From sequence record NC_028894.1: 64,000 bases of DNA; one strand, 5' to 3'. Positions within the stretch are counted from its first letter, which is position 1. Every line of letters begins with the position of its first letter. Source of the stretch: Escherichia phage vB_EcoM_VR20. This document shows positions 5,911-10,532 of the stretch, in pieces. A program made the translations under genes and the position numbers. The notes under the pieces are model-generated. The model was not told the origin of the DNA. It saw only the letters and a list, made by a program, of their open reading frames with translations, and ran no database searches.

Positions 5911-5987
5911 TGGTCGGGGTGGTGGGATTCTAACCCACAACCTACGGTTTAGAAGACCGTTGCTCTATACAATTGAGCTACACCCCG
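5911..5987 (-). tRNA. tRNA-Arg (anticodon TCT), CCA encoded
   Basis: Minus-strand sequence folds as a cloverleaf: acceptor CGGGGTG/CACCCCG, D-arm GCTC/GAGC, anticodon stem ACGGT/ACCGT with loop CTTCTAA, T-arm GTGGG-TTAGAAT-CCCAC, 3' ACCA. Confidence 0.8.
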
Positions 5988-5989
5988 AG

Positions 5990-6063
5990 TGGCCCCATCC
6001 GGACTTGAACCGGAAACCTGCCAGTTATGAGCCGGATGCTCTAACCAATTGAGCTACAGGGCC
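5990..6063 (-). tRNA. tRNA with anticodon CAT (Met or Ile2-type)
   Basis: Minus strand: acceptor GGCCCTG/TGGGGCC (two GU pairs), D-arm GCTC/GAGC, anticodon loop CTCATAA, T-arm TCCGG-TTCAAGT-CCGGA, discriminator A. Confidence 0.75.
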
Positions 6064-6456: not shown

Positions 6457-6939
6457 TTAAAGCATATCAAGCGCTTTAACAGATGGGATTCGGATTTCTT
6501 CTTCGATTATATATAGCTTAACATAAGAAATTACACGCATGAAATCGCCATCATATTCGCAAGCCATACCTAAAAGTTCAGTCAGAGCTTCATTCAGGTA
6601 GTATTCTTCATCATCGTCATTCAACAAGGCTTCCAAATCTGCAATACCAAGAACTTTATTCAAAAATTCATAAGTCAACTGCCCAGATTTTACACCAGAT
6701 GCAATGTGGGCGATAACCAAGTGTTTAACCACATCCCATTCTGAATTACCACATTTATTGCGGTTGTTACAATGCGAACCATGGAAAAGTTCCAGGATAT
6801 ATTTGTACTGTTGGATTTCTTGTTCTTCTACGCCAAATACCATTTGGGTTTTATAGTTGTCACCATCATTTTCCCAGGTTTCAATTTCAATCGCATAACC
6901 TTTAGGGATGGTCTGACCAAATTTGATATTCATTCGCAT
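6457..6939 (-). CDS. hypothetical early protein
   Basis: ATG at 6939 with AAGGAA RBS; 160 aa with acidic C-terminal half. Confidence 0.5.
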   Translation of the reverse strand: MRMNIKFGQTIPKGYAIEIETWENDGDNYKTQMVFGVEEQEIQQYKYILELFHGSHCNNRNKCGNSEWDVVKHLVIAHIASGVKSGQLTYEFLNKVLGIADLEALLNDDDEEYYLNEALTELLGMACEYDGDFMRVISYVKLYIIEEEIRIPSVKALDML

Positions 6940-7319
6940 GTTCCTTCATCAACAATAGTATGCGTATTGGCATTAACAATCTGCCACCAGTCAAAACGGT
7001 TGGAACCATAACAAGGCTTTTTCTCGTTTTCTTTAATGATATCGCGCAGTTCATCTTCAGTCGCAGCTTTTGCAATTAAGTCAGCATAACCGCCACGAGG
7101 ATAATAACTATCACCAGCAAAGAGCAAAAAGTTTGTTTTGATATTCTTGAATTCTTCAAGAGTAATAACTGTTCCAGATGGTTGAACAATATCTACGTAA
7201 CTATATCCTAATTTCTGGGCATTATCTACCGCTTCAAGCAGGGTGTCATGTGCCCACCCAATTTGGCACTCTGGCTTTTCAGATGGATTGGCCTGATAAT
7301 CCGCATACACTTTATACAT
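6930..7319 (-). CDS. hypothetical early protein
   Basis: ATG at 7319 with AAGGTGAG RBS, 1 nt after the stop of the upstream gene; the track N-terminal extension overlaps gene 7321..7506. Confidence 0.5.
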   Translation of the reverse strand: MYKVYADYQANPSEKPECQIGWAHDTLLEAVDNAQKLGYSYVDIVQPSGTVITLEEFKNIKTNFLLFAGDSYYPRGGYADLIAKAATEDELRDIIKENEKKPCYGSNRFDWWQIVNANTHTIVDEGTCE

Positions 7320-7320
7320 T

Positions 7321-7506
7321 TTACTCACCTTTAGACATTTTATCCATAACGAAAGAGATTGAACCAATTAAGAATGCAACTACTAAAGAGATTATATTCT
7401 CAGAAGTTGAAAGCATATTCAACATAAAGCCAGCGAACATGCTAAAACCAAAAGCGGTAACAGCAACAAAGGCAGTAACATTTCTAATTAATTCGCAACG
7501 TTTCAT
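7321..7506 (-). CDS. small membrane protein (61 aa)
   Basis: ATG at 7506 with GAGGAG RBS and a stem-loop early promoter upstream; two hydrophobic segments. Confidence 0.5.
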   Translation of the reverse strand: MKRCELIRNVTAFVAVTAFGFSMFAGFMLNMLSTSENIISLVVAFLIGSISFVMDKMSKGE

Positions 7507-7534
7507 TTTATTCTCCTCATTAGTTGATGGGATA

Positions 7535-7565
7535 ATTATACACTATCCCATATCTAAAAGTACAC
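7535..7565 (-). promoter_or_regulatory. early promoter with -10 (GTGTATAAT) in hairpin loop; -35 GTGTAC
   Basis: Stem TGGGATA/TATCCCA (7528..7550) encloses the -10; GTGTAC lies about 17 nt upstream on the minus strand. Confidence 0.55.
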
Positions 7566-7799
7566 TTATTTTTTACGGAAAATTGATTTATACTGTTTAG
7601 CCCATTTCTCGATAACTTCTGCTGGACCCTGGATAACAAAATAGTCCCCAAACTCTTCACCGCCGAGCTGACCGTAATTATCTAAGGCGTCGCGGAGAGT
7701 TCCATAAGGCATTTCGCCCATTTTATCTTTCTTGCCGGTGTAAATGAATTGCACTTTAACATCAGCAGTTTCATTAATAAATTCTTGATAAGTTTTCAT
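7566..7799 (-). CDS. internal-protein-like small protein with N-terminal capsid targeting sequence (MKTYQEFINE)
   Basis: N-terminus MKTYQEFINE-T matches the T4 IP capsid targeting sequence with a prohead protease (gp21) type cleavage motif; own promoter/RBS module; adjacent to 57B as ipI is in T4. Confidence 0.7.
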   Translation of the reverse strand: MKTYQEFINETADVKVQFIYTGKKDKMGEMPYGTLRDALDNYGQLGGEEFGDYFVIQGPAEVIEKWAKQYKSIFRKK

Positions 7800-7824
7800 G
7801 TTGTCTCCAGTAGTTGATGGGATA

Positions 7825-7854
7825 ATTATACTGCAGTTATCCCATCACGTACAC
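7825..7854 (-). promoter_or_regulatory. early promoter with -10 in hairpin loop
   Basis: Stem GATGGGATA/TATCCCATC (7816..7846) with loop carrying TATAAT on the minus strand; GTGTAC -35 at 7849..7854. Confidence 0.55.
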
Positions 7855-8132
7855 TAAATTTTTGTATATTGTCCAGCTTTAACTTTTTTCAGTTCACGAG
7901 GGCTTACCGCGTAAGTGAATGGAGCATTCCAGGAAGAACTGACTTTGTAACCTTTAGTCAACATCATTGCTGAAACTTTCTTGTTATCAGGACCGTTTTC
8001 GCCTTTAACAAGAAACAACTCAAATGCGCCACCATCAACCGGTTTGGCCTTAACCATCAGATGTCCTTTCAGGTCTTCCAGCATATCCGGGTGACTAATT
8101 GATTCGTTAATAAATTCTTGATAAGTTTTCAT
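7854..8132 (-). CDS. internal-protein-like small protein with CTS (MKTYQEFINE)
   Basis: N-terminus MKTYQEFINE-S; unrelated body; own promoter module upstream. Confidence 0.7.
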   Translation of the reverse strand: MKTYQEFINESISHPDMLEDLKGHLMVKAKPVDGGAFELFLVKGENGPDNKKVSAMMLTKGYKVSSSWNAPFTYAVSPRELKKVKAGQYTKI

Positions 8133-8158
8133 TAGTAGCTCCAGTAGTTGATGGGATA

Positions 8159-8188
8159 ATTATACTGCATTTATCCCATCGTGTACAT
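8159..8188 (-). promoter_or_regulatory. early promoter with -10 in hairpin loop
   Basis: Perfect 10-bp stem GATGGGATAA/TTATCCCATC (8150..8180) with TATAAT in the loop; palindromic TGTACA -35 at 8183..8188. Confidence 0.55.
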
Positions 8189-8487
8189 TACATTTTTGAA
8201 CCGCGAATCACGCCATAAGCTGCGAAGTCGTCAGTGATGTTCTTAGGGGTGTTTTTACCAGTTTCAATATATGCGATGCTGGATTTCTGACCAAATGAGG
8301 TAATTTTATTATAGTTAGAGTCAAGGAAAGTATAACCATTTTTACGCAGCTGGTCAAAGTCTTCAGCGTCGCCTTTACCTTTGAAGTCAACCCATTTGTA
8401 TGTGTTTTTCTTCTGAAGGCCCAGAGGCCAGGTTTTTGCTTCTGCCAGGTAATTATTTTCTACCAAAAATTCGTGGAGCGTTTGCAT
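8188..8487 (-). CDS. internal-protein-like small protein with CTS variant (MQTLHEFLVE)
   Basis: CTS-like N-terminus; only 8 nt from the upstream gene, so probably co-transcribed. Confidence 0.6.
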   Translation of the reverse strand: MQTLHEFLVENNYLAEAKTWPLGLQKKNTYKWVDFKGKGDAEDFDQLRKNGYTFLDSNYNKITSFGQKSSIAYIETGKNTPKNITDDFAAYGVIRGSKM

Positions 8488-8495
8488 TTGAAATC

Positions 8496-8768
8496 CTATT
8501 TTAGATAAATTGCATATTTTTTATAACCAGCTGTCTCATGGCGGAGACCCTTGTCATTGGCAAAACGCTCAATGTTGTTGATTTGGTTCTGGTCAAGTTC
8601 AGAGATGTCAAACGCGAAAAAGTTGCGTTTGTTACCAATTGTTATATGGTCAGTTAAGTCAATGCTATACAAGTGATTGATATTGTCAATCATAGCTTTG
8701 ACTGCTTTACTAATTTTTACTTCTTCATTCAGTTGGGACTCGTTGAAAAGTTCATTAAAAGTTTTCAT
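8496..8768 (-). CDS. internal-protein-like small protein with CTS variant (MKTFNELFNE)
   Basis: CTS-like N-terminus; tightly packed behind 8777..9109. Confidence 0.6.
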   Translation of the reverse strand: MKTFNELFNESQLNEEVKISKAVKAMIDNINHLYSIDLTDHITIGNKRNFFAFDISELDQNQINNIERFANDKGLRHETAGYKKYAIYLK

Positions 8769-8776
8769 AAGAAACC

Positions 8777-9109
8777 TTATTTATACAGTTTAGCTAGTTC
8801 TTTACGTCCGCGAGCAGACATAATGAATTGTTCATCACCAATTTTGAAATAAGCCATACCGCCGTCAACAGCGATGCCAATTTCTTTAGTACCTTCTTTG
8901 CCTTTCCACTTACCACCAGATTTCAGGACAGCTTCAACTGCAGCTTTGGAATATTTGGACGTTTGAAAACGTTCATTACCAATCTGAAAGAAAACACCAT
9001 CTGCATTTTTGGATAAACCAAATTTCAGAGAGCCTTCACTATCATCAATTGATTTGGTCTCATTGATGGCGGATTCGGCTAAAAACTCGTTGTAAGTTTT
9101 GATGTTCAT
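8777..9109 (-). CDS. internal-protein-like small protein with CTS variant (MNIKTYNEFLAE)
   Basis: CTS-like N-terminus with LAE cleavage motif; GGAG RBS; stem-loop promoter upstream; directly downstream of 57B. Confidence 0.65.
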   Translation of the reverse strand: MNIKTYNEFLAESAINETKSIDDSEGSLKFGLSKNADGVFFQIGNERFQTSKYSKAAVEAVLKSGGKWKGKEGTKEIGIAVDGGMAYFKIGDEQFIMSARGRKELAKLYK

Positions 9110-9140
9110 TTTAACTCCGTTTGTTCATTGGTGTAGGAAC

Positions 9141-9169
9141 ATAATACTGCACCTACACTCATTTGTACA
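9141..9169 (-). promoter_or_regulatory. early promoter with -10 in hairpin loop (covarying stem)
   Basis: Stem GTGTAGG/CCTACAC (9131..9158) differs in sequence from the other copies but keeps the pairing; loop carries TATTAT; TGTACA -35 at 9164..9169. Confidence 0.5.
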
Positions 9170-9854
<685 letters not shown>

Positions 9855-9855
<1 letters not shown>

Positions 9856-10532
9856 TATAGTACCTTATTAATTTTATCAAAAAGTTCATCGAGTGTGCCA
9901 TCGTTTTTAATAACAATGTCACTAGCTAGTGGTGGAAGTCCAGCTTCCGTAATGTGTGTATCAGTAGAATGATTTGCTTCATCGCGTTCTACAAAGATTA
10001 TTGTAGCACCCATCGCCCGAAGCGAATCAAGTTCGTTCTTTTGGCGAACATCCGGGACAACGTAATATTTATATCCAGAATAGAGGTTGTCAAGATAGTC
10101 GCATGCAAAAGTTTTAATCCAAAACATGCTGTCGAACTCTGTACAAACGATGTCAGTTCCAAGGGTCTGCATGAAACGTCTAACTGTCCAGGGCTCAACA
10201 TTATTTAGTGTGTGAAATTCAATAATTTTACGAACCATATCTGGATTCGGAAGGTCAAGATTGTATTGTTGTTTCAACCATTCAAGAGCATCAACCAGAA
10301 GAATATAAGCTTCGGTGTTGTTCATTATCAAGGTTTTTTCACGGTCATAACCTTGTCCATCAAAATTTTCCAGGGTCAAATTGTGTGGTAGGTCTTGACG
10401 AATCCACGCTTTATAAAGCGCTTCTTTAATCGGACCCGCAAGCTGCCACTTTGTTCCGTTTTGACTAATAACATAATCAGCAGTCGTATCTTTACCACTG
10501 CGTTTTTTACCCACAATCGCAATTAATTTCAT
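9855..10532 (-). CDS. 1: gp1, deoxynucleoside monophosphate kinase
   Basis: P-loop GKKRSGKDT and overall resemblance to T4 gp1; synteny. Confidence 0.85.

Follow-up and report, generated by a model that had tools for sequence, protein, structure and literature searches.

Why should two neighbouring genes of a T4-like coliphage, whose products part company after a few residues, begin with nearly the same stretch of DNA? The question is raised by the window analysed here, 64,000 nucleotides of Escherichia phage vB_EcoM_VR20 (NC_028894.1), in which the upstream region and the first ten codons of one small internal-protein-like gene, IP-b, recur at the start of the next, IP-a. The preliminary description reported a near-identical duplication of about 65 bp at this place and proposed that it would be a likely substrate for homologous recombination, adding, deleting or swapping the gene bodies. 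The duplication is real but longer than reported, spanning about 95 bp with limits at 7770-7864 and 8103-8198, and a third, partial copy upstream of trna.4 (7511-7565), comprising promoter and hairpin only, had been missed. Our reading, to which we give a probability of roughly 0.85, is that the repeat is a T-even intergenic linker of the PeSL type fused to ten codons of a capsid-targeting leader (CTS), and that recombination shuffles internal protein (IP) cassettes at the ipI locus.

The phage is a member of the genus Gaprivervirus (Tevenvirinae), and sequence comparison finds this region 99% identical to that of Escherichia phage vB_EcoM_VR7, in whose annotation two of the genes concerned are named ip6 (our G) and ip9 (our B) and lie between 57B and trna.4. 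The array of five small genes occupies the site of the T4 ipI locus, from 57B/Acb1 to trna.4, an interval in which T4 carries ipI as a single gene. All genes in the 5.5-11.5 kb part of the window are on the minus strand, and their order in the direction of transcription is gp3, gp1, 57A, 57B, A, B, C, F, G, trna.4, trna.3, tRNA-Met, tRNA-Arg (Table 1; junctions are written as C>F, for that between C and F). PHROGs call B, C and G ‘internal head/virion protein’, a name that rests on homology only, and list F and A under ‘unknown function’; Pfam returned a family for none of the five IP-like proteins.

Table 1. Genes, linker copies and linker elements at the ipI locus of the window
Feature	Position	Strand	Details
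gp1, dNMP kinase	9855-10532	minus	
57A	9625-9855	minus	
57B / Acb1	9170-9625	minus	conserved upstream boundary of the array; Pfam PF23474, E 1.5e-59
junction 57B>A	9110-9169	minus	like architecture, other stem; TGTACA-17-TATTAT; GTGTAGG/CCTACAC around the -10
cassette A	8777-9109	minus	110 aa; leader MNIKTYNEFLAE, M(NI)KTYNEFLAE; found in 22/22 genomes
cassette B (ip9)	8496-8768	minus	90 aa; leader MKTFNELFNE; found in 22/22 genomes
cassette C	8188-8487	minus	99 aa; leader MQTLHEFLVE; PHROG 2667, internal head protein
linker copy 1, junction C>F, upstream of IP-b	8103-8198	minus	repeat alignment, fold, promoter scan
copy 1, -35 TGTACA	8182-8187	minus	
copy 1, -10 TATAAT	8159-8164	minus	
copy 1, hairpin left arm	8171-8180	minus	
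copy 1, hairpin right arm	8150-8159	minus	
copy 1, GGAG	8139-8142	minus	
copy 1, ATG	8130-8132	minus	
copy 1, leader codons 1-10	8103-8132	minus	
cassette F (‘IP-b’)	7854-8132	minus	92 aa; leader MKTYQEFINE; homologue of VR7 ORF153c; PHROG 15565
linker copy 2, junction F>G, upstream of IP-a/ip6	7770-7864	minus	repeat alignment, fold
copy 2, -35 TGTACG	7848-7853	minus	
copy 2, -10 TATAAT	7825-7830	minus	
copy 2, hairpin left arm	7837-7846	minus	GATGGGATAA
copy 2, hairpin right arm	7816-7825	minus	TTATCCCATC
copy 2, GGAG	7805-7808	minus	
copy 2, ATG	7797-7799	minus	
copy 2, leader codons 1-10	7770-7799	minus	
cassette G (‘IP-a’, ip6)	7566-7799	minus	77 aa; Ip6-type internal protein; leader MKTYQEFINE
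linker copy 3, junction G>trna.4, partial	7507-7565	minus	core TATAATTATCCCATCAAC, shorter loop, 18-nt spacer; no leader codons
copy 3, -35 TGTACT	7559-7564	minus	
copy 3, GAGGAG	7513-7518	minus	
trna.4	7321-7506	minus	61-aa membrane protein; conserved downstream boundary of the array

What the five genes have in common is found at their N-termini. A six-frame motif scan of the 64-kb window recovers a T4-type capsid-targeting N-terminus from only five ORFs, namely A, B, C, F and G, and all of their leaders resemble MKTYQEFIAE. A ten-residue leader of this kind directs its protein to the prohead core and is then cut off by the gp21 protease; residues 4 and 7 serve targeting, residues 8 and 10 processing (PMC9026906). 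The aromatic positions 4 and 7 (Tyr and Phe) are conserved in F and G, as are positions 8 and 10 (Ile and Glu), and across the five leaders positions 8-10 read I-N-E, F-N-E, L-V-E or L-A-E. The I-N-E of MKTYQEFINE fits the cleavage motif of the prohead protease, so cleavage at this point is predicted; the T4-type leaders likewise suggest that the proteins of the array are packaged. IPs are diverse defence-countering proteins with only the CTS in common (PMC3012670), IPI countering GmrSD and IPIII being required on ECOR17 (PMC3012670, PMC9391042). The injected proteins of the array are probably anti-defence proteins.

Local alignment of the two full copies gives 88 identities in 97 columns, and the three gap columns are confined to the ribosome-site spacer between GGAG and ATG. 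A repeat search splits the pair into a 30-nt block (7770-7799 and 8103-8132, 97%) and a 60-nt block (7805-7864 and 8139-8198, 92%). Neither part is expected by chance: the 30-nt leader pattern has two matches in the window where 0.00 are expected, and the 18-nt core TATAATTATCCCATCAAC has three exact matches where 0.08 are expected even with up to three mismatches. The third copy lacks leader codons because trna.4 encodes a membrane protein.

Each full copy has the same order of parts on the minus strand: first the stop codon that ends the preceding gene, next an A-rich tract, and then a -35 box, 17 nt, a -10 box, GGAG, ATG and the codons for MKTYQEFINE. AAAAAT(T/G)TA stands upstream of the -35 box, and GGAG is 6-7 nt ahead of the ATG. 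The anatomy given in the preliminary description, of leader codons, ribosome-binding site and a stem-loop promoter, thus held up in promoter-like hexamers, predicted hairpins, GGAG, ATG and leader. A promoter scan matches TGTACA-17-TATAAT at 8187-8159 and TGTACA-17-TATTAT at 9169-9141. TGTACG-17-TATAAT (7853-7825) and TGTACT-18-TATAAT (7564-7535) were read from the sequence; the -35 boxes are imperfect, and TGTACG at 7848-7853 fell below the threshold of the scan. Set against the PST/T4 consensus TTTACW-N17-TAYWAT (PMC4122927), the linker promoters agree at 10-11 of 12 positions, which is a consensus match only, and from T4 biology they would be active as promoters of the early type. The late-promoter consensus TATAAATA occurs once in the array, at 8778-8785 ahead of B, so that F and G, at late times, may rely for their synthesis on transcripts reading through the linker hairpins.

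These hairpins have a stem of 10-11 bp (GATGGGATAA/TTATCCCATC) which in each of the three copies encloses the -10 box, the box sitting in the loop, of 11 nt in the core pattern, and the start of the 3' arm. The predicted fold is strongest for copy 2 (7800-7870; -18.1 kcal/mol, z -4.0), with z -2.5 for the trna.4 copy and the weakest value, z -1.7 and a modest gain over shuffled sequences, for 8133-8205. A hairpin at the equal position relative to the -10 is also present at 57B>A, at H>trna.4 in relatives and at both flanks of T4 ipI, although the stems differ: GTGTAGG/CCTACAC, GGTCTAG/CTAGACC and, in T4, GATGAGGTAGTG.../...CCTCATC and TAGGGT/ACCCTA. The architecture of the hairpin is conserved and the sequence of its stem is not. 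The stems are out of register in a MAFFT alignment of seven junction classes, for which RNAalifold gave no consensus structure, and the junction hairpins were folded separately, junction by junction. An intrinsic terminator was considered and is not supported, as no T-run follows the hairpin and a terminator scan had no match there. Our best guess for its role is an attenuator or a stabiliser of the 3' ends of read-through transcripts.

Could the repeat simply be what two genes with the same signals must look like? On this account the copies are alike as promoter, ribosome site and packaging leader, and recombination between them is incidental and has not shaped the array. The leader codons of the two copies agree at 29 of 30 nt. 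The leader is identical as protein, however, and its nucleotide sequence is about 94% conserved among the IP genes of over 150 T-even records in other genera, so that identity of the leader codons alone is weak evidence for anything more; constraint is obvious for the promoter hexamers and GGAG as well. More telling are the 65 nt that precede the ATG. Here the two copies are 85% identical, as against 70-72% for either with the trna.4 copy and 57-60% with 57B>A. As 57B>A is functionally equivalent, function alone need not impose such identity; the equivalent junctions of T4 also use quite other sequences, and the two copies share spacer and loop positions in addition to the constrained motifs. 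The possibility allowed for at the outset, that repeat identity would be no higher than the coding constraint produces, is therefore not what the comparison returned. Together with the chimeric junctions and the 12 array configurations described below, this makes functional constraint by itself a very unlikely explanation.

A recent tandem duplication of one IP gene, whose copies diverged in their bodies while the 5' ends stayed similar, would also leave a repeat of this kind. F and G are adjacent, on the same strand and similar in size, and their first 10 residues are identical. Beyond that point the likeness ends: BLASTP aligns the two proteins over MKTYQEFINES/T, the first 11 residues, and no further, and over their bodies the two genes have a nucleotide identity of 48%, which is background. 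The two genes are in different PHROG families, and relatives have F without G and G without F. Duplication was rejected on the BLASTP result and is to our minds extremely improbable.

The preferred reading, a recombining linker, makes a statement about relatives. The linker would supply each small gene with its own signals for transcription, translation, packaging and processing, and some 45-95 bp of it are directly repeated at three junctions of the array. The highly active homologous recombination of the phage would cross over within the linker, whether in a single genome or between relatives that infect the same cell; in T4, short homologies suffice for recombination (PMC2839356, PMC9391042). 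Whole cassettes would thereby be deleted, added or exchanged in frame, leaving their neighbours undisturbed, and the outcome would be a combinatorial but collinear repertoire of injected proteins.

The locus was accordingly compared in 21 Gaprivervirus genomes and the window, 22 in all, by clustering the ORFs between 57B and trna.4. Such a comparison for the presence or absence of single cassettes had been suggested with the recombination idea, for which a lack of structural variants in relatives would have been damaging. Instead there are 12 configurations among the 22 genomes, all collinear and of the form A B [C][D][F][E|G][H]. They draw on eight cassette families, of which A and B occur in every genome and C, D (ip5), F and H in some but not in others. 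E and G, 42% identical, are alleles of one slot, which is empty in some genomes. ABCFG, the configuration of the window, is also that of VR7 and TH57. ABCF, with no gene in the ip6 slot, is found in P896, CJ20, P479 and SP18, the last being tallied as a separate configuration since its C is a pseudogene. The others are ABCG (VR25), ABCE (TH54), ABCFE (UPEC01, TH15), ABCDFE (TH44), ABCDE (EAWsc9, pEC-M719), ABCDG (TH22), ABDG (VR26, TH40), ABDE (UPEC07) and ABDEH (RZ, MN01, P8, DK-13). Cassette F is missing from VR25 and 10 other surveyed genomes. A search of IMG/VR with a 24-nt core produced two contigs and no new cassettes.

The configurations do not follow the surrounding DNA. Near-identical flanks enclose differing configurations, and the same configuration is found on different flank backgrounds. 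Neighbour-joining trees of the two flanks, which carry no support values and are indicative only, are incongruent, with the configurations scattered over both.

More direct evidence comes from the junctions themselves. VR25 is without exactly IP-b, and the left half of its C>G junction comes from the 8103-8198 copy, the right half from the 7770-7864 copy. The left part is C-type, with the diagnostic ACACG...ATAAATGCAG of the former, and the right part is G-type, with GAGACAAC-ATG...AATGAAACT of the latter, so that the exchange took place within the 31 identical bases TGCAGTATAATTATCCCATCAACTACTGGAG that lie between. To judge from these markers, the junction is precisely the product predicted for recombination between the two repeats of the window. 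ABCG is known from one genome in one assembly, that of VR25, in which a collapse at the 95-bp repeat is possible.

Other junctions point to exchanges elsewhere in the linker. At F>trna.4 in P896, SP18, CJ20 and P479 the genes are joined directly and the switch lies in the right arm of the hairpin, inside ATTATCCCATCAACTACTG. A variant of the loop and -10, clearest as CTGTAGTATGAT in P896 and SP18, suggests that the gene lost here was the E allele and not G. TH54 has the F-type spacer CTACTA before the body of E at C>E, and the exchange was therefore inside the 30 leader nucleotides. C>D of TH22 is a patchwork, in which D has a full copy of the linker and the exchange falls in ATGAAAACTTATCAA. 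C>F of VR7 is a patchwork as well, with a G-type spacer that looks like a conversion patch. A column analysis of 50 junctions gives the same picture: in the columns left of the hairpin, up to and including its left arm, about 0.9 of the entropy is explained by the upstream gene, in those from the ribosome-site spacer onward about 0.9 is explained by the downstream gene, and a core of about 45 nt is almost invariant. The proposal that gene bodies are added, deleted and swapped at these repeats thus finds support in both the variant arrays and the chimeric junctions of relatives; by which pathway they recombined, and whether a given event was a deletion or an insertion, is what we infer. The linker is not the sole route of change in the array, since C and D also replace each other after B, at B>C and B>D boundaries where there is no such linker.

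Exchange of this type need not be general. Targeted recombination, in which the hairpin is a recognition site and cassettes move as mini-circles in the manner of integrons, has been proposed for the PeSLs of RB49 and phi1, where mini-circles were detected experimentally (PMC2839356). The hairpin is indeed found at every promoter-bearing junction, its stems covary, and many of the crossovers are in or beside it. The crossovers are nevertheless spread over the module, falling into three or more separate intervals of which the leader codons are one, and some (TH54, TH22, VR7) are wholly in the leader codons, downstream of the hairpin; this distribution favours general homologous recombination over a site-specific event. 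The cassette order, moreover, is conserved in 22 of 22 genomes, which is unexpected if circles enter several equivalent sites, and the annotations of the locus contain no integrase-like gene. An integron-like site-specific system was rejected on the spread of the crossovers and on the absence of an annotated integrase from the surveyed loci, and we regard targeted movement of the cassettes in general as decidedly unlikely.

The hairpin might still be a dedicated recombination signal of another sort, for example a folded single strand or cruciform that is the target of a phage nuclease or of a strand-exchange step. We consider this unlikely, if worth stating for its consequences. Were it true, ipI would resemble an integron that works without an integrase, a platform on which injected anti-defence proteins are gathered, and the collinearity of the 22 arrays would reflect a directional rule of the mechanism.

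How does the linker compare with elements already described? According to later papers (PMC2839356, PMC4122927, PMC9026906), conserved blocks flanking the polymorphic IP loci of T-even phages were described by Repoila, Tetart, Bouet and Krisch (EMBO J 1994). As those papers relate it, the locus was the same, 57B to trna.4, its small ORFs had a conserved N-terminal leader, and the role proposed for the blocks was recombinational shuffling of IP genes. The T-even elements contain T4 early promoters and weaker, AT-rich stem-loops (PMC2839356). The linker of the window agrees with this description in each of its features and stands at the homologous locus. Later reviews (PMC3012670, PMC9026906) indicate that a repeat reaching into the CTS was part of the 1994 description, so far as it is relayed there. 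By these accounts, both the type of element and its proposed role have been known for T-even phages since 1994. The flanks of T4 ipI resemble the window in having GTTTAC, a hairpin around the -10 and ...CATCAACTACTGAGGAGAATAAAATG before trna.4. They differ in the stem, GATGGGATAA/TTATCCCATC in the window against GATGAGGTAGTG... in T4, and in enclosing one cassette where the window has five and TH44 up to six. Gaprivervirus was apparently outside the 1994 sample, judging from the later papers.

PeSLs were defined by Arbiol et al. (2010), who reported promoter and terminator activity, an association with indels and, in RB49/phi1, the mini-circles (PMC2839356), and were extended to PST/T4 and nt-1/KVP40 by Comeau et al. 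(2014; PMC4122927). The PeSLs of these three phage pairs are composite modules like the linkers of the window, with an AT-rich tract, -35 and -10 boxes and a stem-loop as well as a Shine-Dalgarno sequence and start codon. They too are found in hyperplastic regions, ahead of small ORFs that are not essential, at places where close relatives differ by indels or replacements. There are differences. The T-even IP-locus elements have been termed analogues, not homologues, of the RB49 PeSLs (PMC2839356); the promoter in the window is of the T4 early type rather than a perfect sigma-70 promoter, and the stems are AT-rich instead of containing runs of G/C. A terminator role has been shown for the RB49 elements, unlike the hairpin of the window with its lack of a T-run and of any match in the terminator scan. 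The window repeat also runs 30 nt into coding sequence, that of the CTS, which ordinary PeSLs do not.

As for the cargo, T4 IPI, IPII and IPIII have the ten-residue leader MKTYQEFI-x-E (Mullaney and Black 1996, as cited in PMC9026906), but the mature parts of the proteins in the window are unrelated to them. The likeness to integrons, drawn by Arbiol et al. (PMC2839356), lies in an ordered series of small, unrelated, promoter-served cassettes with imperfectly conserved hairpin linkers between them, as in attC-flanked ORFs. The array in the window departs from integrons in having no integrase, a promoter in each cassette and crossovers spread over the homology.

IP loci go unmentioned in Petrov 2010, and our literature search returned no paper on these repeats in VR7 or other Gaprivervirus phages and none cataloguing Gaprivervirus arrays. 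What is new here is the catalogue for one genus, the strictly conserved order of its cassettes and the spread of crossovers over the linker. The last two favour ordinary homologous exchange or deletion over the free insertion of mini-circles.

If IP genes are lost, gained and exchanged in frame, each together with its promoter, ribosome site and leader, this would explain why close relatives have differing sets of IPs. Those injected IPs whose function is known neutralise host defences. The 12 arrays among 22 Gaprivervirus genomes, with breakpoints mapped in the linker, provide a natural illustration of such shuffling, and the linker module itself may serve as a ready design for the engineering of packaged cargo.

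Not every junction in the internal-protein array carries the linker, the repeated module made up of a T4-early-type promoter, a hairpin around its -10 box and GGAG. Spacers of only 8-9 nt separate cassette A from B (ip9; window 8769-8776), B from C (window 8488-8495) and, in relatives, B from D, and neither a promoter nor a hairpin was found at these junctions in the window or, for B>D, in the relatives' loci L004, L005, L006, L010 and L011. Where D replaces C directly after B, the common sequence is confined to an ATG(N)AAAC microhomology. Together, the bare junctions and this short match show that the linker was not used in the exchange of C and D after B.

The C>D junction takes two forms in relatives. 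In EAWsc9, TH44 and pEC-M719 the promoter-hairpin linker gives way to GGGGATAATTATCCCC, a perfect palindrome with a T-run behind it that looks like a terminator, whereas TH22 has the ordinary linker at this position. In SP18, cassette C is a pseudogene (L007 2087-2341, annotated as a misc_feature) whose longest remaining ORF is a 43-aa fragment; an 8-nt tandem duplication, AAAAATGT, lies at the C stop codon in both SP18 and P479.

The exact T4 late-promoter consensus, TATAAATA, has a single match within window 6800-9800, at 8778-8785 on the minus strand, overlapping the stop codon of cassette A and with the ATG of ip9 11 nt downstream. As no exact consensus precedes F or G in this interval, late expression of these two cassettes may depend on read-through of the linker hairpins.

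The -10 box also bears on start-codon annotation. Its variants TATGAT and TATTATG generate in-frame upstream ATGs for trna.4 and cassette A of relatives, and the codons so added fall within the promoter/hairpin; the upstream starts annotated in these genes (see table) are therefore probably artefacts.

Features of the window and annotations in relatives with suspect upstream starts
Feature	Location	Annotated length
tRNA-Arg(tct)	window 5911-5987	
tRNA-Met(cat)	window 5989-6063	
trna.4, suspect start	P896 (L001) 2320-2538; L019 2321-2539	72 aa
Cassette A, suspect start	VR7 ORF156c, L002 3705-4070	121 aa

The two tRNA genes of the window, both on the minus strand, are 71% alike over 58 nt. tRNA content varies among relatives, VR7 having Met only and SP18 having Arg, Asn and Met.

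Among the matches listed for window 7321-7809, which comprises ip6 (cassette G) and trna.4, are many T4/T6-like phages from a different genus (Tequatrovirus records) at 77-81% identity; in these the ip6 counterpart is annotated ipVI. This identity shows that the ip6 cassette and its downstream boundary, trna.4, are common to different genera. The array directly adjoins 57B (window 9170-9625, minus strand), a predicted Acb1 anti-CBASS phosphodiesterase (PF23474, E 1.5e-59), and this immediate proximity marks the neighbourhood as a putative anti-defence cluster.
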